Positions 5,826 to 64,000 of a DNA stretch of 64,000 nt are shown in pieces. The notes under the pieces are model-generated. The model did no database searches and had not been told where the DNA came from. It saw only the letters and a list, made by a program, of their open reading frames with translations. A program made the translations under genes and the position numbers. Each line of letters starts with the position of its first letter. The first letter of the stretch is position 1. Source of the stretch: Arenicellales bacterium (lineage in GTDB: Bacteria > Pseudomonadota > Gammaproteobacteria > Arenicellales > JAJDZL01); the NCBI GenBank assembly GCA_965200645.1, contig CBDAUN010000003.1:1472968-1536967 (forward strand). The letters run 5' to 3'.

Positions 5826-6599
5826 TCACCTGGTTTTGCCGGCTCGTGCTCGCACTGCCTCACGATACTCAATAATTCGCCCAATTAAATTTGGAGCTTG
5901 AACTGATCGTCTCAAATCTTCCATGTCTTGCTCCCGTGAATCAGGTGTAGTCATCACAAGCATATTATCCACAAACTCCTTCTTGACTGCGCTTCCAGCT
6001 TGAGTGGCAGCTTCGATAATTTCGGGCCATTGTGATGAATCAGCAATTTGCGTCAAAAATCCAATTCGGGATGCTTCTTGTGCATCGAGAACGGGTGTAT
6101 TAATCAGCATTCGCTGGGCGTTGTCGCTGCCAATCTTCTGTGCGAGACGTCGCGTGCCAAGATAGATTCCAAAATTCAATCCCGGCAGGCAAAAATGCGA
6201 GTCACTGGTTGCAATTCTCCAGCGACAAGCACATACCAGATCTGCACCGGCCCCAAATGCCTTGCCGTGAACCAATGCCACACTCAGCAACGGCGCATGA
6301 TGTAGTGCCTGAAGCATCTGTTCGACATTCAAGATTCGTTCTGCTACAGCAGCGTCGTTGGACAATTCAAGATTGCCAAGATCGAATCCTGAACAAAATG
6401 ACTTACCATTCCCCATAAGAACGAGAGTTCGTGTTCCGTCTTCACAGGAAGTATCAATGGCGTGCTTCAATTCAGACACCAGTTCCGCACTAAGCGAATT
6501 TGCTCGCTCCGGACGGTTCAAACGCAGAATTTTTGTTGTGCTATCACGTTCTTGAAGCAATAAACTCAAAGTATTTCTCCCAGATTTCAATGTGTTCAA
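5826..6599 (-). CDS. enoyl-CoA hydratase/isomerase (crotonase) family protein
   Basis: 257 aa. NRPERANSLS, FCSGFDL and GKAFGAGADL are crotonase-fold oxyanion-hole motifs. Confidence 0.8.
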   Translation of the reverse strand: MNTLKSGRNTLSLLLQERDSTTKILRLNRPERANSLSAELVSELKHAIDTSCEDGTRTLVLMGNGKSFCSGFDLGNLELSNDAAVAERILNVEQMLQALHHAPLLSVALVHGKAFGAGADLVCACRWRIATSDSHFCLPGLNFGIYLGTRRLAQKIGSDNAQRMLINTPVLDAQEASRIGFLTQIADSSQWPEIIEAATQAGSAVKKEFVDNMLVMTTPDSREQDMEDLRRSVQAPNLIGRIIEYREAVRARAGKTR

Positions 6600-53819: not shown

Positions 53820-54200
53820 TCAAAGCAATCCTCGTTCTTCCAAAACTTTTCTTGCAACTCTAAAGCATTGAAGACTTTGAGGAACGCCACAATAAATTCC
53901 AATAACGTGAATGATTGATCTGATTTCCTCCTTACTCACTCCGTTATTTATTGCTCCATTACAGTGAATCTCCCATTCATGCATCTTGTCGAGCGCACCG
54001 AGCATAGTCAAATTCATCATTGATCGAGTTTTTGCATCGATGGTGTCATCGCCCCAGCCAAATCCCCAACACCACTGCGTCATCGCTTCCTGAAAAGGTC
54101 GGCTAAATTCGTCAGCGCTTGCTAGATTTTGCTCAACATACTCTTCGCCAAGTGTAGACTTGCGTGCATTTAAACCTCTTTCAAATAGTTCCTTGTCCAT
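53820..54200 (-). CDS. carboxymuconolactone decarboxylase (CMD/AhpD-like) family protein
   Basis: MDKELFERGLNARKSTLGEEYV and the downstream helices fit the PcaC-like CMD family. The ATG at 54200 is preferred over the track start at 54248. 20-nt overlap with the upstream oxygenase gene. Confidence 0.7.
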   Translation of the reverse strand: MDKELFERGLNARKSTLGEEYVEQNLASADEFSRPFQEAMTQWCWGFGWGDDTIDAKTRSMMNLTMLGALDKMHEWEIHCNGAINNGVSKEEIRSIIHVIGIYCGVPQSLQCFRVARKVLEERGLL

Positions 54201-55320
54201 CCAGTAAACTCCTCTCTTGCAATTTCGATTTATGACCCCTGTACTCAACTGCTTGCCGCATCCAGCCTTGCAATACTTTTATCGAGTGCTCTGAATTCAC
54301 ACCTGAGTTGGGGTCAACTACCAAAGGTCCAGGTCGATAACCTTTGCTGTTCAAGCCTCGCTGCACCGATTCAACCAAATGAATATCTTCCTCTACTGTT
54401 GTTTCACGATCCTGAATTGCCAACTGGCGAATAGTATCGGATTCTTCTCCACCGACTGTAAACCAACCCCGCCAAACTTCAACCGTATCCACACTTAGTG
54501 GACGCCAATGGTAAGTGTTTAAAACATTGCCGGGATACACTTGAAAGGAAAACATCGGCCATAAAAACCATGATGAATATTTTCCGGCATTAAGATTCGA
54601 CTCCGTATTGATTTCGTAACTCATTTGGTCCAAGTTTTGGCACTCTGTGGTATGTCGCAAACAATGTCCTTGCGGTTGAATGTCATAGGTTTCAGGTTTA
54701 ATCACGCCGCTTGAAAATGTTTTGTGATTGATTCGACAGTGATAGCACTCTGAGTAATTTTCAACTGATAACTTCCAATTACAGTTTTCTTCAACAGTGA
54801 CCCACTCCAATAGTGCCAATTCAGCGATTTGCGGCACATACTCTTGCAATTCCTGACGAGCATTCGGAAACCACTCGTCCATTGGCGCAGCATGGTCATC
54901 CAAGTTGATGAAGATAAAGCCATGAAAATTCTCAACACGTACTTCAGTCAGGCATATTTTGGAAATGTCCAAACCGGGTACAGACTTTAAGTTAGGGCCA
55001 CCCATAAGTCTGCCAGCCAAATTGTAGGTCCAGTTGTGATAAGGACATACCAATAGTCTGGTTTGACCACTTCCGGACACCAACTCGTGTGCTCGGTGCT
55101 GACACACGTTGTAGAAAACACGAACTGCATGATCCTTTCCCCGCACACAAAACAAGTTTTGTCCAGCAACTTCAAATGAAACGTATTGACCAACCTGACG
55201 TACTTGAGATTCATGACAGGCAAACTGCCAGGTTTTCGACATCATACCCAATTGTTCCTGACTGAAGACTTCAGGTGCCAAATAGTATCGAGCTTCAAGT
55301 GAATGTACGAGATTGTTCAA
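54181..55320 (-). CDS. Rieske [2Fe-2S] non-haem iron oxygenase alpha subunit (GbcA/Stc2-like)
   Basis: Rieske motif CQHRAHEL...CPYHNWTY and mononuclear iron region ENYSECYHCRINH. 379 aa with a TTG start overlapping the RpiR stop (TTGA). Confidence 0.85.
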   Translation of the reverse strand: MNNLVHSLEARYYLAPEVFSQEQLGMMSKTWQFACHESQVRQVGQYVSFEVAGQNLFCVRGKDHAVRVFYNVCQHRAHELVSGSGQTRLLVCPYHNWTYNLAGRLMGGPNLKSVPGLDISKICLTEVRVENFHGFIFINLDDHAAPMDEWFPNARQELQEYVPQIAELALLEWVTVEENCNWKLSVENYSECYHCRINHKTFSSGVIKPETYDIQPQGHCLRHTTECQNLDQMSYEINTESNLNAGKYSSWFLWPMFSFQVYPGNVLNTYHWRPLSVDTVEVWRGWFTVGGEESDTIRQLAIQDRETTVEEDIHLVESVQRGLNSKGYRPGPLVVDPNSGVNSEHSIKVLQGWMRQAVEYRGHKSKLQERSLLDGQGTI

Positions 55321-56234
55321 CTCATCTCTCCATTGGCAGTTTCGTATATTTGTAGGCTGTAGCGTCGTGCATGGATTTGTTCAATTCTTGAAGTTGCCTC
55401 CCGGTCCTCCCCTGCAATCACAAATGCCATCATAGCCTCAAGCAATGCCGCTGCCGCCACCGTAGACGGAAAAAATTGAGGCGTATCCGTATGCACTATG
55501 AATTTGTAATCACTTGCAGTTACGATTGGCGAGGCCAAACTGTCCGAAATAGCTGTGACAGTCACATTTTGTTGCTTCGCAACTTCCACAGCACGAACCA
55601 CCTCTGCACGATAGGGTTTAAAAGTCATTGCAATTAGAACATCCCCTTCAGTTGCTCGTGCTAAATCATCAATCGCATTACTGCCATTCTTCGGAATAGC
55701 AATGAAATTATTTCTGGCCATATCACCTAGATAAGCAAATCCGTTTGCCAATGTCGAATTAACACCCACCCCGAGTATATACACCCTCTTCGCCCGCACG
55801 ACCGCGTCAGCAACCTCCTTCATCTGAATGGCATCTGCTGATGCGAAGGTGTTCTCAATGTTAACTATGGCGCTTTTAGCCAGGTCAGCATAAAGGCTCG
55901 ATAGCTTACCCCCCTTGGATAGCGATTGCAGCCAAATTGCCCGGTCCAGAAAATCCACCTGCCCACTTCTGATCTGCTCACGAAAGGGTTTACGAAAATC
56001 TTCATACCCACTAAATCCAACAGACTGCGCCATACGCACAACCGTGTTCGGCTTAACCCTGGCGGCATCAGCAATTTCGCGAACCGAACAGACTCCCACA
56101 GCATTGGGATTATCTAAAATATAGGTGGCAACCTTACGAACTTCTGGTGTCATGACCGACAACTTCCCTGACATCTCATCCAGCATGCTACGTGGACTAA
56201 GGCTATCTTCGTTTGGTACATTTACTCCTTTCAT
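55317..56234 (-). CDS. MurR/RpiR family transcriptional regulator
   Basis: 305 aa. N-terminal HTH (VREIADAARVKPNTVVRMAQSVGFSGY) plus a SIS domain. Confidence 0.85.
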   Translation of the reverse strand: MKGVNVPNEDSLSPRSMLDEMSGKLSVMTPEVRKVATYILDNPNAVGVCSVREIADAARVKPNTVVRMAQSVGFSGYEDFRKPFREQIRSGQVDFLDRAIWLQSLSKGGKLSSLYADLAKSAIVNIENTFASADAIQMKEVADAVVRAKRVYILGVGVNSTLANGFAYLGDMARNNFIAIPKNGSNAIDDLARATEGDVLIAMTFKPYRAEVVRAVEVAKQQNVTVTAISDSLASPIVTASDYKFIVHTDTPQFFPSTVAAAALLEAMMAFVIAGEDREATSRIEQIHARRYSLQIYETANGEMS

Positions 56235-56264
56235 ATATCATTATGGTATATTTGTACTAATACA

Positions 56265-58751
56265 TTGTCAAACCATAAAGCGCCGTTTCGAGCTAGAGTG
56301 AACCGGACCAATTCATTACCTACTTCCGCCAGGGTCGTGGTAATTGGTGGCGGCATTATGGGCTGTGGAATTGCCTATCACCTTGCTCACGAAGGCTGGA
56401 AGGATGTTGTGTTACTGGAAAAGGCCGAATTGGCCTCTGGCTCAACCTGGCACGCCGCCGGACAAATCACGCAATCCGTATCGAACATCGGTCTTGGCAG
56501 ATGTGTCGGCTACAACATAGACCTGTATTCAGGCAAACTTGAAGCAAAAACAGGTCAGTCCGTGACTTGGCACGGTTGCGGTTCAATTCGACTCGCCTAT
56601 ACCGAAGATGAAATGGACTGGCTGCGCCACACCATCAGCGTGGGTCGGGCTTTAGGGTTTTGCATGGAGTTGATCACCTCCAAACGTATCGCTGAACTGC
56701 ATCCTTTCTATAACTTGGACGGAATTATTGGCGGACTCCACACGCCAGACGACGGACATGTTGACCCATCAGGGGTCACCCATGCACTGGCAATTGGTGC
56801 TAGAACGCTTGGTGTAAAGATCATTCGTCGTTGTCGAGCAACTGACATCAATATGAACAACAGTGGCGAATGGATCGTTAAAACAGATCAAGGCGATATC
56901 ACCTGTGAACACGTTGTCAATGCCGCCGGCACTTATGCAAGACAAATTGGAGAATGGAACAGCCTCCAACTTCCCATGACATCAATGACTCATCACTATC
57001 TTGTAACTGACACGGTTCCAGAGTTTTTAGACTTACGTTCAGAACTCCCGGTGATTCGAGATGATCGCATGGTATCCGGCTATGTGCGTATGGAACAGAA
57101 GTCCGGTTTGATTGGAATCTATGAAAAGGAATCACCTAACACTGTTTGGCTAGATGAATGTCCCTGGGAGGCAGAAAATGAACTGTTCGAAGTGGATTAC
57201 GACCGCATCATGCCTTGGCTCGACAATGCATTCGAGCGAATGCCCGTCTTGTCCAAACTTGGAATTAAGCGAGGTGTTCATGGAGCAATATCTCACCCTC
57301 CGGACGGTCATCCGCTGATTGGGCCGGCACCCAAAACCACTAACTACTGGTGCTGCTGCGGAACTCAAATTGGAATTGGCTGGGGTCCGGGTCTAACCCG
57401 AGAACTGGCTCGCTGGATGGTGCATGGAGCAGCCGATATATCCATGCGTGAATTTGATCCCAGACGATTTGGCGATTACGCAAACAAGAAATGGCAAGTC
57501 ATTAAGGCCAAAGAAGATTACTGCCTGCGACATGAAATTCCTTTTCCACATTTCAACCGAAACGCCGGACGTCCGGTAAAACGTAGTGCACTCTACCACA
57601 AGCTTATGCAAAAAGGTGCGGTATTTGAAGAAGTTTTTGGCCATGAACGCCCGCGCTGGTTTGCAAAAAATGGTATCGCGCAGCACGATCACTACTCTTT
57701 TAAACGAAACGAACTGCATGACATCCTAAAAAATGAAATACAAGCTGTTCGTGAACGGGTTGGCCTAATGGACATCACTGCATTTACCAAAGTGGAGGTC
57801 TCGGGAACTGATGCGCAAGCATTTATCGATCGACTTGTGGCCAATCGCCTGCCAACGAGAAAAAATGGGATCATTCTGACCCACCTCCTGAACAGACGAG
57901 GTCGAATCGAAATAGAACTTACCGTAGCTCGAATCAGCCAAAAACGGTTTTATCTCATCTGTGCGGCGTTTTTTGAACAACGTCTGGTTGACCACCTCAA
58001 CCAATATCGGATTAACGAAGACGTAACGATTGAAAATCTTACCGATCAATGGTCAGCTGTCGCCATACAAGGCCCGCGGTCACGAGATGTACTGGGGACT
58101 AACACCGATGCAGCTTTAGATAATGCCAACTTTCCGTGGCTGACGGCCCAGCAAATTTCGATCGTGGGCAAACCTGCCGTAGCAATGCGACTGTCATATG
58201 CCGGTGAATTGGGTTGGGAAATCCATTGTCCCAACGAGTGCATGCCGGCAATCTATGATAGTTTTTGGGAGTCGGGAATAGATTACCGAATTACTGACTA
58301 CGGATCATTCGCAATGAATACAATGCGAATGGAAAAGATGTTCAAAGGCGCAAATGAATTAACCAATGAAGTCACTCTGCCAGAGGCAGATGTAATGCGC
58401 TTTGTGAAACTCAAAAAAGGTGACTTTGTAGGCAGAGCAGCAACCGAAGCCAGCTCAACTGCTGACAATAAGTGGCTTTGTGTTTACTTGTCGATTGAAC
58501 CCGATGGAATCTATGACGGCCATGGCGGAGAAGCGGTGATTTATAAGGACAAATGTATAGGCTCTACGACATCGATGGCGTTTAGTCACACAGTTGGAAA
58601 AATATTGGCATTCGCGTACATTGACCCCGAATTTGCAAACCCAAACTTAGAGCTCGAGGTTCTGATTGCAGGCAATCCTCGTCAAGCTACACTATTGGAA
58701 AGACCTGTATACGACCCAGAAAATATTCGCCCGAGGACAGATGCCTTATGA
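56265..58751 (+). CDS. FAD-dependent oxidoreductase fused to GcvT-type folate-binding domain (dimethylglycine/sarcosine dehydrogenase-like)
   Basis: 828 aa. VVVIGGGIMGCGIAYHLA dinucleotide fold, then a C-terminal aminomethyltransferase-like half (AVAIQGPRSRDVL, SYAGELGWE). Confidence 0.85.
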   Translation: MSNHKAPFRARVNRTNSLPTSARVVVIGGGIMGCGIAYHLAHEGWKDVVLLEKAELASGSTWHAAGQITQSVSNIGLGRCVGYNIDLYSGKLEAKTGQSVTWHGCGSIRLAYTEDEMDWLRHTISVGRALGFCMELITSKRIAELHPFYNLDGIIGGLHTPDDGHVDPSGVTHALAIGARTLGVKIIRRCRATDINMNNSGEWIVKTDQGDITCEHVVNAAGTYARQIGEWNSLQLPMTSMTHHYLVTDTVPEFLDLRSELPVIRDDRMVSGYVRMEQKSGLIGIYEKESPNTVWLDECPWEAENELFEVDYDRIMPWLDNAFERMPVLSKLGIKRGVHGAISHPPDGHPLIGPAPKTTNYWCCCGTQIGIGWGPGLTRELARWMVHGAADISMREFDPRRFGDYANKKWQVIKAKEDYCLRHEIPFPHFNRNAGRPVKRSALYHKLMQKGAVFEEVFGHERPRWFAKNGIAQHDHYSFKRNELHDILKNEIQAVRERVGLMDITAFTKVEVSGTDAQAFIDRLVANRLPTRKNGIILTHLLNRRGRIEIELTVARISQKRFYLICAAFFEQRLVDHLNQYRINEDVTIENLTDQWSAVAIQGPRSRDVLGTNTDAALDNANFPWLTAQQISIVGKPAVAMRLSYAGELGWEIHCPNECMPAIYDSFWESGIDYRITDYGSFAMNTMRMEKMFKGANELTNEVTLPEADVMRFVKLKKGDFVGRAATEASSTADNKWLCVYLSIEPDGIYDGHGGEAVIYKDKCIGSTTSMAFSHTVGKILAFAYIDPEFANPNLELEVLIAGNPRQATLLERPVYDPENIRPRTDAL

Positions 58752-59851
58752 ATTCAATACCAACCGAAATGCGGGCCTTTGTACTCACTGGCCACGGTGA
58801 CCTCTCAAAACTTGAATATCACACTGATTGGCCAACACCAACACCAAAGTCTAATGAGGTGCTAGTGCAGGTTAAGGCCTGTGGGCTAAACAACACGGAC
58901 ATCAATACCCGAACAGGTTGGTATTCAAAGTCCGTCACTGGTCAAACTTCCTCAGATGGCTACAAAAATACCGAAGACTTTGATGCTGCCTGGGGTGGTA
59001 GTTCAATTCAGTTTCCGCGAATTCAAGGAGCTGATATTGCCGGTATAGTGGTGCAAATTGGTGGAAGTGCTAATGGTGACCTGCTAGGGAAGAGAGTGCT
59101 GATTGATGCTTGGCTACGAGATTGGGACGATCCCACTGACTATTATCAGTATGGCTATCTTGGTTCAGAAGCAGATGGCGGGTATGCAGAATATGTTGCT
59201 ATAGATGAACGTCATATACATCCAATTAAGAGCAACCTGTCAGATGCCGAATTGGCGACATTTGCCACAGCTTACGGCACAGCGGAAAACATGCTGGACA
59301 GGATTGGCGTAGACTCAAGCGACACAGTATTAATCACTGGTGCATCCGGCGGAGTCGGCTCCGCACTCATTCAGTTGGCAAATCGACGTGGTGCAACAAC
59401 TATTGCCATGACGAGCTCGTCCAAATACGATCAAGTTCAGGAAATTGGGCCGAATGCCATCATTTCCCGCAACCCTAAAAATCTCCAATCGGAACTACAA
59501 AAGGCCATAGGACAAGACTGTGTCAGCGTTATTGCGGATGTTGTAGGTGGCGATTACTGGCCAACACTCATCGAAACTATTCAGCGCGGTGGCAGGTACG
59601 TGTGCTCCGGAGCAATTGCCGGACCAATTATCAGTGCTGATTTACGAACGATATACCTCAACGACTTGACGTTATGCGGTTCTACTACACCAAAATCTCA
59701 CACATTCGGGAATATGGTGAAGTACATCGAACGCAGTGAAATCAGGCCGCTTCTTTCAAAAGCGTTTCCGCTTCATCAATTGCACGATGCACAAAAAGCC
59801 TTTGTGGAAAAAGCATTTACCGGAAAAATAGTGGTAACAATGGATGACTAA
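58748..59851 (+). CDS. zinc-type/MDR superfamily alcohol dehydrogenase or quinone oxidoreductase
   Basis: 367 aa. EVLVQVKACGLNNTD, and GASGGVGSALIQLA Rossmann motif. ATGA overlap with the upstream gene. Confidence 0.8.
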   Translation: MNSIPTEMRAFVLTGHGDLSKLEYHTDWPTPTPKSNEVLVQVKACGLNNTDINTRTGWYSKSVTGQTSSDGYKNTEDFDAAWGGSSIQFPRIQGADIAGIVVQIGGSANGDLLGKRVLIDAWLRDWDDPTDYYQYGYLGSEADGGYAEYVAIDERHIHPIKSNLSDAELATFATAYGTAENMLDRIGVDSSDTVLITGASGGVGSALIQLANRRGATTIAMTSSSKYDQVQEIGPNAIISRNPKNLQSELQKAIGQDCVSVIADVVGGDYWPTLIETIQRGGRYVCSGAIAGPIISADLRTIYLNDLTLCGSTTPKSHTFGNMVKYIERSEIRPLLSKAFPLHQLHDAQKAFVEKAFTGKIVVTMDD

Positions 59852-59996
59852 TCTTGAAGAATACTACCAGTGAAAATTAGTCGTATTTCGATCTGGCAGT
59901 TAGACTTAAATCTCAAAGAATCATACTGGTTGTCCGGCGGAAGGCTCAAATTTGAAAAACTAGACTCAACACTGGTTTGCATCGAATCAGATGAAG

Positions 59997-60179
59997 GTGT
60001 TTCAGGTTGGGGCGAGGGTTGTCTCTGAGGACACACTTATCTGCCGGCTCACGGCCCAGGAATTCGGTCTGCTATGAGCATTCTTGCATCAGCGATTCTT
60101 GGTTGTGACCCGCGTTCCATCGCATCAGTCAATCGCATAATGGATCAAGTATTACCCCGACCATGGCTATGTCAAGTCC
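59997..60179 (+). repeat. direct repeat copy 1 (183 bp of the MR/MLE gene)
   Basis: Manual alignment to 61985-62167 gives 177/183 identical positions with no gaps. Mismatches at 60024, 60044, 60055, 60129, 60130 and 60166. Confidence 0.9.
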
Positions 60180-60744
60180 AATGTGAAAGGTCTTGGTTCA
60201 GAATAACAAGTTAATCATGGTGGTATGCGGCCGTTTGGTGTAGCATGTTGGGTGGAGAACAGAAGAATTTAACTCAGGTGTTTTGGTCAGCAACAAGCAT
60301 GAAGCCTGAAGTGACCAAAGGCGAATTTTCAGTTCACGGATGGCGTTCAGTCCTCGTTCGACCTGTTTTTTTCATGATAGAAGATTAACTGACTTCAGAT
60401 TTCGACACTCAGTTGTGCTAGTTCGGTGAATTGAAGGCTTGATTCAAAAATCGCTACAAACTAAAAGGTTTACAATGTCACTGAGTGATGGACCATCACG
60501 GCAGGACAGAAACGATGGAAGTTTTTGAACCGCTCTGACACTTAAAGATACAGGCTTAGGTACTTTAATTGCTTGATGGTGGCCATGGGTGTCGCACTCG
60601 GATTCATTGCGTTCGACTTTGTGTGCATCGCGGCTGAGTTGTTTTACTGCAGATCATGCAGTCGTGGCATGTTTTGATAGTTCGGCATGGTCCAGCGCAA
60701 CCTTTGACGTATAGCACAGTCATCAAACCACCCGGAGAGTTAAA

Positions 60745-61728
60745 TTGAGTGTAACCACCAAGCCAGGCAATCCTGCTACGGGCAGGCCGTATCATGATTT
60801 GTTTTTCAAAAGCGTCTTAGCGTCGTTTCCGGAGTTTCGCAAAGAACTGGTCGAACTGTCACTGCCCGATGCGTTACGGTTGGAACTTGACACTGATCAC
60901 ATTGATTATCAAACCGAGATCTTAGGCAGTGCATGGCAGGTGGAACTTCGTCCCGATGGATTGATGTCGATGAAGATCAACCAGGCCAGCGAAGCAGATC
61001 CCCGGGCACAGTTCGTGTATGAATTCAAAAGTCATCCGGACCCGCAGACGCTGGCTCAGGTGGCACGGTATATGTACAGTGTCGGCTATGCACATCCTGA
61101 TGCGTTGGTGATGGCCGTAGTGGTGTATCACGGTGAACAGCACTGGAACTTCGATACCACGCATCCTGTTGCGTTGAAACTGTCGTCCGAGGAACTTCGA
61201 AAGTACGATGCCAAGTCACTGCACATTCGAGCGCTGTTTGTCAATTTAATGGACGAGTTAATTCAAAGAAGAGCAAAGGATTTGAAGTTTGCCCCGGTAT
61301 TCTATATTCTTACGCATATATGGCATTTGGATGATGCTGTGGTGGGCCAGATGCTGCGACTGGCGTCTGAAAGGTTATATGGCATGGTGGGTTACGAATT
61401 ACTGTATGCCTCGATGGTGGCATACGTGTGTCAGCGGGACCCGAAATATAAAGATCGAGAGCGACTGATGAAAATAGAAAAGTTAAATGTTGAACGGGAC
61501 AGGAGAATGATTAGCAAAGTGTTGCCGATATTAGATGAATACACCAGGCAAGACAGACAAGAAGCTAGACAAGAAGGTAGACAGGAAGGTAGACAGGAAG
61601 GTAGACAGGAGATTGCAGAGAGTTTACTTCGCGACAATTTAGACGATTCTTTTGTTGTCAAGCACAGTGGTCTATCGCCGGATGATGTTTCCGAGTTGCG
61701 GCATAAGTTGAACGGAGCGGGTTCGTAA
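60745..61728 (+). CDS. Rpn family recombination-promoting nuclease / putative transposase (YhgA-like, PD-(D/E)XK)
   Basis: 327 aa. N-terminal PYHDLFFKSV box, a D...FVYEFKSHPD nuclease-core-like block, and a C-terminal low-complexity RQEGRQEGRQEG tract typical of this family. TTG start. Confidence 0.75.
   Translation: MSVTTKPGNPATGRPYHDLFFKSVLASFPEFRKELVELSLPDALRLELDTDHIDYQTEILGSAWQVELRPDGLMSMKINQASEADPRAQFVYEFKSHPDPQTLAQVARYMYSVGYAHPDALVMAVVVYHGEQHWNFDTTHPVALKLSSEELRKYDAKSLHIRALFVNLMDELIQRRAKDLKFAPVFYILTHIWHLDDAVVGQMLRLASERLYGMVGYELLYASMVAYVCQRDPKYKDRERLMKIEKLNVERDRRMISKVLPILDEYTRQDRQEARQEGRQEGRQEGRQEIAESLLRDNLDDSFVVKHSGLSPDDVSELRHKLNGAGS
61549..61608 (+). repeat. 12-bp tandem repeat, about 5 units, inside the Rpn gene
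   Basis: Units: caagacagacaa, gaagctagacaa, then gaaggtagacag three times. They encode QDRQ-EARQ-EGRQ-EGRQ-EGRQ. Confidence 0.9.
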
Positions 61729-61984
61729 AGATACGGAAAGTCTCTGATTTGTCGTGTCTATGTTTTGAATAGTTAGTTCGATATGATTGACGCAAGGCAA
61801 AGTCTTATTGCTTGACTTCCGCCATGATGGCTTGTAAGTCATTGGTTTAAAATGCCCACGGATCGAACTGAGGCACGCCATGGAAGGTTTTGCAAACACC
61901 GCACAATCAAGTTTTGTAAGCCATTGATATCAAAGACAGATAATATTCGTCGTTCGAAGACTTAAAAAAATTGTCCGAACATTA

Positions 61985-62167
61985 GTGTTTCAGGTTGGGG
62001 CGAGGGTTGTCCCTGAGGACACACTTATCTGTCGGCTCACGGACCAGGAATTCGGTCTGCTATGAGCATTCTTGCATCAGCGATTCTTGGTTGTGACCCG
62101 CGTTCCATCGCATCAGCTAATCGCATAATGGATCAAGTATTACCCCGACCATGACTATGTCAAGTCC
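61985..62167 (+). repeat. direct repeat copy 2 (183 bp of the MR/MLE gene)
   Basis: Offset is exactly 1988 bp from copy 1. Carries the same in-frame TGA (62014-62016) and the same C4 run (62143-62146). Confidence 0.9.
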
Positions 62168-62914
62168 CTATCGATGTTTGGTGGAGATTCAGCACAACCT
62201 GCTCCGGTTAATTCATCCATATCCACCGACACTATCGAGCAGATGATCAACTCGATAGAGACTGCGATCAAAGACGGCTATCGATGGCATTCAGCAAAGA
62301 TTGGTGGCAGGCATGCCGAACTGGATCATAACTGTATTGAAGCACTGAATGAAGCCTTACCCGTGGGTTACAACCTGACCTTTGGTGTGAACCGCTCGTG
62401 GACACCTGCCACAGCTATTTATGTCCTAAACAGCGCAATGGCTCAGAACAAATTCGAACAGCCTTGCGAAACACTTAATCAGTGTGCACAGGTCGCTTCT
62501 CGCGTTTCCCAGCCAATAGACTTAGAGAAATGTCTACACACATTTCAAGACTATCTTGACACTTGGAAACTGGAAGCATGTGAGGCTGTCAAAATCAAAC
62601 CTAATCGCGTCGGCGGACTGGCCAAGGCTCGACAAATTCGAGACTTTGGCGTTTCCGGTTGGTAGGTAAATGTACATTGAAGATACCGGCGGTAACGTGC
62701 TTGCCGACTCCACAGCCATTCATCTGGCATCATTTACTCCAGAACAAAACCGACTTGCAAGCTGGCTGTGCCACTATCACCTCGCTGAAGACCCTTTTCC
62801 AACCCAGGGAGCCCTTAACAATAAGGGCGTGACAATACCACCTCAAGCACCTGGAATTGGCATTGAACCGAACATTGAATCACTTGGAGATCCATTTGCA
62901 ATGTGGGAATTAAA

Positions 62915-64000
62915 ATGAAAATTACACGAGTTTTTATTTGGCATGTCGCACTGACCAGCCTCGAACCCTACTACATGGCAGACGGTAAGGACTGTGAAAC
63001 CGTCGAATCGGTAGTAATCAGAGTTGATACTGATTCGAAATTTTCCGGCTGGGGAGAAGTGTGTCCCATACCTCATTATCTGGAAGCCTATGCTCGCGGT
63101 GTCGCTCCGGCAATTAAAGAAATGGCCCCGGTACTGCTAGGTGCAGATCCCATTGGTGCAGAATCTCTTATGAGTAAATTAAATGCCTATCTCATCGGAC
63201 ACCGCTATGCAAAATCGGCAATCGACACTGCACTGTGGGATATTACAGGCAAAGTCGCAAATTTACCGCTATACAGTCTTCTAGGTGGTCGACGACACCA
63301 ATCAATGCCTGTTTTCCACTCCATCACGTGTATCGCACCTGACGAAATGGCAAAAATTGCAGTAGATACGCACCAGCAAGGAGTACGTCAATTTCAAGTT
63401 AAACTCGGAGCGGATAAAGATTGGCAAGCGGACGTTGAAAGACTGATCAAGGTACGCGAGGTTATTAAGGACGGTTCAATGGTTTTTGGGGACTGGAATT
63501 GCGGTTCATCTCAACTGGATGCAGTCCGGGTTGGTCGAGCAGTTGCTCATCTCGACATTATGCTCGAACAACCATGTCCTACAGTGGAGGAATGCGCAGC
63601 TGTAAGGTCAGCGACGGGATTACCCATGAAGTTGGATGAAAATGCTCACGACACTGCATCATTGTTAAAGGCTCATTCTTTAGGCTGCATGGAGGCTGCT
63701 GCGATCAAACTTTCCAAGTTCGGTGGTATTAGTGCAGCACGTCGAGGTCGGGATCTTTGTACTTACTTTGGAACGAAACTCGGCATCGAGGATACTTGGG
63801 GATCCGATATCACAACGGCTGCTGTATTGCATCTTGGTTGCACTACCAGTCCCGCAGTTCTGCAGAATGTCTGTGATCTTTCCGTTTACGTTTCGCCTCA
63901 TATTGCAAGCGATGGATCAAAGCGTGTCAATGGCTGTATTGCGCCACCTGAAGGTCCGGGGCTGGGCGTTACTCCCGATTTAGACTTACTCAAAGAACCC
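62915..64000 (+). CDS. mandelate racemase/muconate lactonizing enzyme family protein (enolase superfamily), 3' end outside window
   Basis: My own translation gives 362 uninterrupted codons from the ATG at 62915 to the window end. Sequence: MKITRVFIWHV...SGWGEVCP...GHRYAKSAIDTALWDITGK...LLGG...FQVKLG...GDWN...LEQPC...KLDE...IKLSKFGG...IEDTWG. Not in the ORF track because there is no stop in the window. The ATG overlaps the pseudogene-tail stop (ATGA). Confidence 0.9.
   Translation, partial: MKITRVFIWHVALTSLEPYYMADGKDCETVESVVIRVDTDSKFSGWGEVCPIPHYLEAYARGVAPAIKEMAPVLLGADPIGAESLMSKLNAYLIGHRYAKSAIDTALWDITGKVANLPLYSLLGGRRHQSMPVFHSITCIAPDEMAKIAVDTHQQGVRQFQVKLGADKDWQADVERLIKVREVIKDGSMVFGDWNCGSSQLDAVRVGRAVAHLDIMLEQPCPTVEECAAVRSATGLPMKLDENAHDTASLLKAHSLGCMEAAAIKLSKFGGISAARRGRDLCTYFGTKLGIEDTWGSDITTAAVLHLGCTTSPAVLQNVCDLSVYVSPHIASDGSKRVNGCIAPPEGPGLGVTPDLDLLKEP

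Follow-up and report, generated by a model that had tools for sequence, protein, structure and literature searches.

A 183-bp duplication of an inactivated MR/MLE gene brackets an rpn nuclease cassette in an Arenicellales bacterium

The way in which rpn genes spread is not settled: their distribution is patchy, many genomes hold several copies, and a broad survey saw no sign of their transposition, reporting variable ends without terminal inverted repeats or target-site duplications and ascribing their movement to recombination or hitchhiking (PMC10400941). We set out to explain a locus that raises this question in an unusually concrete form. It lies in a 64,000-nt stretch of DNA, hereafter the window, from an Arenicellales bacterium (assembly GCA_965200645.1, contig CBDAUN010000003.1, positions 1,472,968 to 1,536,967). 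There, a gene for an Rpn (YhgA-like) protein interrupts a gene of the MR/MLE family of the enolase superfamily, and the inserted DNA is bracketed by two 183-bp direct repeats of the gene that it interrupts. We asked what kind of event could leave such a structure behind. The reading that we favour, tentatively and with less than even confidence, is a one-off homology-anchored insertion-duplication of the Campbell type, followed by drift.

The repeats occupy positions 59997-60179 and 61985-62167. Each is 183 nt long, they are identical at 177 of the 183 positions without a gap, and their starts are 1988 nt apart. A repeat search, MAFFT and blastn (E = 4e-84) agreed on this structure, and similarity broke off sharply on both sides. 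Numbered 1 to 6 in left-copy coordinates, with the left state given first, the mismatches are 60024 T/C, 60044 C/T, 60055 C/A, 60129-30 TC/CT (sites 4 and 5) and 60166 G/A. No third copy of the segment was found in the window by blastn. Between the repeats lie 1805 bp (60180-61984) that are unrelated to the interrupted gene.

We considered whether the structure was real. The closest relative of the window Rpn protein (P0001, 97%) led to a sister-strain assembly, ERZ25068713, whose contig_51 (locus L011) matches the window over 13 kb at 99.5% identity, with 69 differences. In L011 the repeats, their junctions and the six differences between copies all recur, and a seventh difference, in the left copy, is present at 60113. 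Because an independent assembly of a different strain has identical junctions, the repeat structure is not an assembly artefact, a source that we regard as very unlikely. The protein encoded just upstream, an alcohol dehydrogenase (ADH, 58748-59851), was matched exactly on ten short-read Logan contigs from other samples, representing several single-nucleotide polymorphism haplotypes. Nine of these (L001-L008 and L010) run precisely 30 nt into the left repeat and break off at window position 60026, as expected of a k=31 graph where a 30-mer has two different left neighbours. The original prediction had described the repeats correctly and had proposed long reads as the safeguard against an artefact.

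We next considered the gene from which the repeats derive. Both copies, as had been predicted, are internal sequence of one MR/MLE gene; they cover residues ~43-103 of its 367-aa orthologues, and Pfam matches and orthologue alignment agree on this. ADH alignment and a scan of genome collections showed that many marine Alpha- and Gammaproteobacteria have, directly after the ADH gene, an MR/MLE gene of ~367 codons without interruption. When the 183-nt segment is counted once, the window gene is colinear with intact orthologues over residues 1-347 (tblastn and MAFFT); one such orthologue (L075 9070-10170) is 59.7% identical to it over these residues. This colinearity indicates that no target sequence was lost at insertion and that the repeats represent one contiguous internal segment of the target. 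On the reading that we favour, the 183-bp repeats are a target duplication that arose from the insertion event, and not the footprint of a classical transposase.

The sequence further indicates that the interrupted gene is a pseudogene, a point that the original prediction did not mention. Across the region concerned, the orthologue consensus reads GWGEGCPWGHTYLPAHGPGIR...(I/V)NR.MD..LPGH.YVKS. In both repeat copies the conserved Trp codon TGG has become TGA (at 60026-60028 and 62014-62016), and the LPGH codons contain a G-to-C change together with one extra C that causes a +1 frameshift (CCCC run at 60155-60158 in the left copy). Additional lesions lie 3' of the right copy, where a ~20-codon deletion is followed by a stop and a change of frame near 62663. 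Since both copies have these three derived, inactivating changes in common, the duplication postdates the death of the gene, and a single dead allele was its source. This argues against the earlier suggestion that the second copy came from a diverged or foreign homologue, as both copies carry the same lesions of this lineage's pseudogene.

If the copies were born from one allele, their ~3% divergence calls for another explanation. Polarisation against orthologues placed the derived state in the left copy at site 1 and in the right copy at site 2 and sites 4-5. The end points of the nine Logan contigs imply that in those strains the first 30 nt of the two copies are identical, so that site 1 would be T in both, unlike in the window. 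The tenth contig, L009 (SRR33991076), spans window positions 59997-60165 in left-flank context and is a hybrid, left-type at sites 1-3 with the right-type CT at 60129-30; it terminates just before site 6. Three origins are conceivable for this hybrid: a loop-out allele, conversion between the copies, or a chimera of the k-mer graph. As at least some of the differences between copies vary between strains, divergence after the duplication explains them better, and drift and conversion would account for the 3% by which the copies differ.

The junction of the insert is that of neither a classical transposon nor an integrase element. Its sole long open reading frame (ORF) is rpn, no other recombinase or transposase ORF occurs in 60180-61984, and the insert is without the recombinase gene that would define a site-specific integrative element. 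Alignments of the insert ends, direct or inverted, scored no better than shuffled sequence, giving no sign of terminal inverted repeats; the termini AATGT...ACATT(A) form a 5-nt inverted match with a chance expectation of roughly 1%. In place of a short (2-14 bp) perfect target-site duplication there are 183 bp with six mismatches. These results uphold the original description of an insert unrelated to its target, with an Rpn/YhgA-like protein as its only long ORF, ends that match only in AATGT, and flanking repeats much longer than classical target duplications.

A further feature absent from the original prediction is that the cassette occurs in many copies. The 1.79-Mb NCBI/ENA contig with the ADH of the window has at least eight other distinct rpn paralogues, and two more lie on contigs of 524 and 287 kb, which we assume to belong to the same genome. 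We examined five distinct cassette loci: the window with its strain orthologue L011, L012, L013, L014, and a locus represented in two strains by L016 and L017. The sister assembly was the source of L011, L012, L014 and L016, and two further assemblies provided L013 and L017. All seven retrieved rpn ORFs are intact, and dN/dS (the ratio of nonsynonymous to synonymous substitution rates) is 0.16-0.32 between copies and 0.2-0.3 between the window gene and its paralogues, values that point to purifying selection. These copies share a core corresponding to window ~60327-61886, which comprises ~420 nt upstream, the ORF and ~155 nt downstream. They have no common ends; homology starts and stops at different points at each locus.

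The paralogous proteins are mosaics of shared blocks, and the comparison of strains tells a similar story. Between the window and L011 the insert has 40 differences in 1805 nt (2.2%), compared with 28 in 10.8 kb of flank (0.26%), an approximately 10-fold excess. The proportion of synonymous differences (pS) between orthologous cassettes is 0.05 for the window and L011 and 0.13 for L016 and L017, and many of the states at which the window and L011 vary occur in other paralogues. Because orthologous cassettes diverge faster than their flanks and their variants recur in paralogues, frequent gene conversion among dispersed copies is suggested, and the cassettes appear to exchange sequence by this route.

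The surroundings of the other cassettes proved to be of different kinds. In L012 and L013, rpn lies between two direct copies of a ~550-nt non-coding element, R, that resembles a miniature inverted-repeat transposable element (MITE). Element R is sharply bounded (termini TGAGAG...CTCTCA), and its left terminus was seen next to three unrelated flanks. On either side of the R-rpn-R block stands a short duplication, which reads AGAATAT in L012 and TTACAT in L013. No parent transposase for R was found, and an Rfam search of R returned no match. The left R of L012 holds an extra 476 nt, and the R of L017 has a 406-nt partial tandem duplication. We tried the long repeats of L012 and L013 (82-88% identical) as instances of the phenomenon seen in the window and rejected them, as they are a separate element with its own termini and duplications of 6-7 bp. 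Judged from sequence, R-rpn-R is a composite-transposon arrangement in which the cassette hitchhikes on a MITE-like element, rather than a duplication of a long target. At the locus of L016 and L017 only one R is present, to the left. No R terminus was found in the window with up to three mismatches allowed.

L014 differs again. It has no R, and a segment, X, that lies downstream of rpn in L012, L013 and L016 is upstream of it in L014. Positions 5137-7317 of L014 are a precise circular permutation relative to L012 9532-11723, with a breakpoint at ..ATAC[TC]GCGA.., an arrangement that would imply a tandem-array or circular cassette ancestor. We asked whether the window insert is itself circularly permuted and dropped this idea, since its ends are not significantly contiguous in L013 (score 25, compared with 22.7 ± 4.4 for the null). 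Of the five distinct loci examined, only the window copy, with its strain orthologue L011, has the 183-bp target duplication. The claim that the repeat shows how Rpn genes move was therefore too general, given that L012 and L013 sit in MITE composites with 6-bp duplications and that L014 is permuted without a long repeat. Considering the varied cassette ends, the R composites and the L014 permutation together, we read the rpn cassette as a passively moved, recombining repeat.

Any model of the window locus must account for two illegitimate joints, one between the end of the 183-bp segment (here called B) and the insert and one between the insert and the start of B, and for the duplication of B. 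In the insertion-duplication that we favour, a copy of the rpn cassette would have been pasted into an MR/MLE gene that was already inactivated. A small circular or looped DNA would have carried the cassette joined to the 183-bp B piece of the same lineage's dead gene, and one homologous crossover between this circle and the chromosomal gene would have produced the order gene[..B] - cassette - gene[B..]. Both the circular intermediate and the single crossover are inferred. The two B copies would have been identical or nearly so at birth, with later neutral drift and occasional conversion between them.

Several observations fit this scheme. The topology is exactly what results when a circle with an internal piece of the gene integrates by a single crossover, which counts in its favour, and the target junctions are those of a Campbell-type integration in that the gene is colinear with B counted once. 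Insertion-duplication by crossover is a common route in bacteria, and given the signs of circular or tandem forms and the frequent homologous exchange within the family, it fits here as well. It is also in line with the published view of rpn movement by recombination or hitchhiking (PMC10400941). Campbell-type structures are familiar from complex class 1 integrons with ISCR1, in which the 3'-conserved segment is duplicated, and from laboratory insertion-duplication mutagenesis. In both, an insert lies between long direct repeats of the interrupted sequence and neither target-site duplications nor terminal inverted repeats are needed, as is the case here. Such structures can loop out as a circle, which in the window would in principle measure 1988 bp. 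The window insert differs from them in having no rolling-circle transposase, plasmid replicon or integrase that would explain how a circle formed. Composite transposons built on MITEs or insertion sequences are resembled by L012 and L013, whereas the window copy has a 183-bp rather than a 6-bp duplication and no R. Of the original proposal, then, Campbell-type integration stands as one of the two best explanations, and a foreign or diverged homologue as the source of the second copy is not supported, given the shared lesions.

A number of points weigh against insertion-duplication. No circle, loop-out allele or empty site was recovered in the retrievable strains. No close relatives were found, the best ADH outside the species being 65-70% identical, and a search of relatives for the empty site gave only distant, uninterrupted ADH-MR/MLE arrangements. 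The model requires the cassette and B to have been joined beforehand, so that two illegitimate joints precede the crossover, more events than staggered-break repair needs. It rests on a single case, as none of the four other retrievable loci (L012, L013, L014 and L016/L017) has a long host duplication. It leaves the 5-nt inverted termini AATGT...ACATT unexplained, although these are compatible with chance. Finally, the pattern of six differences cannot discriminate between insertion models.

Staggered-break repair is the close rival from which present data do not separate insertion-duplication; taken by itself we consider it possible but doubtful. Here, opposite-strand nicks 183 bp apart, possibly made by a low-specificity nuclease such as Rpn, would have left long single-stranded tails; the 3' tails would then have primed copying of, or joined, an ectopic rpn cassette, and fill-in would have duplicated the 183 bp as a very long target-site duplication. 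This would be one event, and it predicts copies identical at birth, which fits the shared lesions and the strain-variable differences. The lack of fixed cassette ends and the 98 nt unique to the left end of the insert are what capture of an arbitrary donor would be expected to give. RpnA, moreover, is an endonuclease of low specificity; the ends that it leaves are 3'-OH, and it stimulates recombination independent of RecA (PMC5350276). Against this, no microhomology could be shown at either junction, with no donor locus to compare. The right junction and L014 have 9 nt in common, AGTGTTTCA; this identity was examined as junction microhomology and dropped, as its positions are not colinear in the family alignment. 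This explanation too has a single case behind it. The nearest likeness is to LINE-1 elements and to templated insertions at eukaryotic breaks, which generate long, variable target-site duplications. These run from tens to hundreds of base pairs, show no sequence specificity and arise from wide staggered nicks, much as would be needed in the window; unlike the window, they are eukaryotic and depend on reverse transcriptase or polymerase theta. To our knowledge no comparable LINE-1-like or polymerase-theta-like process has been established in bacteria, and we know of no bacterial precedent for templated insertions with ~200-bp duplications, which weighs against staggered-break repair.

Origins in two steps are improbable. 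Either the dead gene was first tandemly duplicated and the cassette then replaced everything between the two B segments, from where B ends in the first copy to where it starts in the second, or two insertions 183 bp apart on different chromosomes recombined within the cassette. MR/MLE genes are already in tandem at this locus, with a paralogue from 62915, rpn arrays elsewhere arise by tandem duplication (PMC10400941), and the cassettes recombine with one another. Both versions nevertheless demand that at least two rare events, independent of each other, happened to have the same end points. Neither intermediate was seen in any strain, all the pseudogene lesions are common to both B copies, and apart from the duplication the gene keeps exact colinearity with its single-copy orthologues.

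A still less probable alternative is that the cassette mobilised itself, with the Rpn nuclease acting as a transposase-like enzyme with a long and variable stagger, which would make it a new class of element driven by a PD-(D/E)XK nuclease. In favour are the many copies of the cassette, all of them intact and subject to purifying selection, and, at the window insertion, a target duplication together with the 5-nt inverted termini AATGT...ACATT. The copies share no ends, however; other copies are without a long host duplication, and two moved between MITE-like elements with ordinary 6-bp duplications. The 5-nt match has a probability of ~1% by chance, the ends align at shuffle level, and the broad survey saw no rpn transposition (PMC10400941). 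The boldest form of this idea, copy-and-paste driven by Rpn or by the cassette together with it, through a very wide, variable stagger that produces target duplications of ~100-600 bp and of which the window would be the first clean footprint, strikes us as equally improbable. A milder form is also possible, in which the repeat-bracketed cassette is a homology-targeted translocatable unit: it would loop out as a circle of 1988 bp and return to conspecific genomes through recombination. We know of no autonomous transposase with a PD-(D/E)XK fold of this kind, which also speaks against self-mobilisation. The weakest account, which we give hardly any credence, is an assembly artefact in which two strain variants of the 183-bp segment were misplaced on either side of the cassette; the cassette is a dispersed repeat, the ~3% difference resembles strain variation and short-read (k=31) contigs break at the repeat, but a separate strain assembly has identical junctions and the same six differences, and the Logan contigs stop 30 nt in as expected for two real left neighbours.

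We then turned to the protein that the cassette encodes. The window Rpn matches Pfam PF04754 (Transposase_31, YhgA-like) over residues 17-197 with 32 bits, above the gathering cut-off of 21, and all of its close and distant homologues carry this domain. NCBIfam TIGR01784 and NF007418 were also matched, with scores below their cut-offs, and tblastn found plasmid genes annotated as Rpn family at 27% identity over 93% of its length. The PD-(D/E)XK motif P70-D71 ... E93-F-K95 is invariant in six close paralogues, and among 49 homologues D71 is invariant and E93 is at least 90% conserved. An AlphaFold model (pLDDT, predicted local distance difference test, 85) has one long helix over residues 256-296, and the top matches in a fold search were PD-(D/E)XK nucleases, weakly and without significance (E ≥ 0.1). 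The PDB sequence search gave no match, no PADLOC model matched, and no relatives of the protein were found in GTDB representative genomes, JGI metagenomes or IMG/VR. By these sequence comparisons the gene truly belongs to the Rpn family, though as a distant member.

RpnL/RpnS of E. coli are intragenic toxin-antitoxin nucleases for which hypervariability of C-terminal four-residue repeats is a hallmark (PMC10400941). The window Rpn shares their Pfam family and PD-(D/E)XK motif, and its family likewise has a variable C-terminal domain: its C-terminal helix contains four-residue (12-nt) repeats whose number changes from paralogue to paralogue and from strain to strain, so that protein length ranges over 319-343 aa. 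Met255 (± one residue) is present in all close paralogues, 14 residues before these repeats, and by analogy an internal RpnS-like product from Met255 is possible. As in E. coli, the genes are multicopy and patchy, with variable ends and no terminal inverted repeats, and the restriction-gene neighbours of L012 and L016 are a further likeness. Unlike typical family members, the window protein is only ~27% identical to annotated Rpn proteins, and its gene is bracketed by a 183-bp target duplication where the published survey reports none. The Rpn protein is probably cargo kept for defence and not a dedicated transposase.

Restriction genes recur beside the cassettes. An Eco47II-like methyltransferase/endonuclease pair lies to the right of rpn in L016 (9411-10881), and in L017 remnants of 108 and 380 nt are left (6071-6561). 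In L012, fragments of a Type IIG/Mrr-like restriction gene adjoin the cassette. The rpn copies thus tend to sit beside decaying defence genes.

The features of the locus are collected in Table 1.

Table 1. Features of the interrupted gene, the insert and its repeats in window coordinates, with the positions of element R at related loci.
Feature	Position	Strand	Basis or remarks
Left 183-nt direct repeat	59997..60179	+	MR/MLE codons ~43-103; repeat search, MAFFT, blastn; Logan stops at 60026
Right 183-nt direct repeat	61985..62167	+	Same TGA (62014-62016) and same frameshift as left copy
Left 98 nt of insert, non-coding	60180..60277		No homologue in other retrieved cassette copies; blastn, Smith-Waterman with shuffles, six-frame translation
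Non-coding region upstream of rpn, conserved in paralogous cassettes	60278..60744	+	Homology to L012, L014, L016, L017
rpn gene, intact, 327 aa, TTG start after GGAGAG	60745..61728	+	Pfam PF04754
Possible internal RpnS-like frame, Met255 to stop, 73 aa	61507..61728	+	Analogy with E. coli RpnL/RpnS (PMC10400941)
12-nt tandem repeats coding RQEA/RQEG	61550..61609	+	Repeat search, protein alignments
Non-coding 3' part of insert	61729..61984	+	Homology to other cassette copies
MR/MLE pseudogene, 5' part	59870..60179	+	In-frame TGA, +1 frameshift; ORF list, sequence, colinear orthologue alignment
MR/MLE pseudogene, remainder	62168..62918	+	Pfam MR_MLE_C on ORFs 62174-62665 and 62670-62918; orthologue alignment
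Tandem MR/MLE paralogue, apparently intact, outside the event, runs off window	62915..64000	+	Pfam MR_MLE_N and MR_MLE_C
R-rpn-R or R at related loci	L012 8512-12303; L013 4635-7238; L016 6842-7391; L017 3390-4366		Direct orientation of R

Within the insert, positions 60180-60277 had no homologue in the window or the fetched loci by blastn or by Smith-Waterman alignment with shuffle controls, and the idea that they are a diverged form of segment X of the other copies was rejected (z ≤ 0.1). Positions 60278-60326 are an 'R-less' junction of spacer and core (at 60326/60327) that is also present in L014. A hypervariable patch at 60291-60331 differs strongly between the window and L011 strains. 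On the 3' side, 61729-61886 is kept in all cassette copies, 61870-61984 matches the segment just before element R in L012 and L013, and ~500 nt of the other copies are absent internally from the window copy. A scan of promoters and terminators gave nothing beyond shuffle expectation, and the insert had no tRNA or other Rfam match.

More widely, the neighbourhood at window positions 54181-64000 and in the whole L011 locus holds a Rieske oxygenase, an RpiR-type regulator, a DAO-GcvT flavoprotein, the zinc ADH, the two tandem MR/MLE genes, aminotransferases and a creatinase-like gene, and it looks like a cluster for the catabolism of betaine or N-methyl amino acids. Several of these genes are split in the L011 assembly, through either ongoing gene decay or long-read indel errors.

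We found no paper in the literature that describes a long duplication of the interrupted gene on either side of an rpn insertion. The window locus is a genuine and unusually legible footprint of rpn recombination, the product of a single event whose mechanism is most likely ordinary. Reads in which a hybrid B (T,C,C,CT,A) is joined directly to CTATCGATG would support the Campbell or translocatable-unit reading. Within one rpn family, three kinds of junction occur side by side, namely a 183-bp duplication in a dead gene, MITE composites and a circular permutation, and together they speak for passive movement of rpn cassettes along any recombination route at hand. Further long target duplications, if found, would instead point to a new nuclease-driven insertion mechanism.

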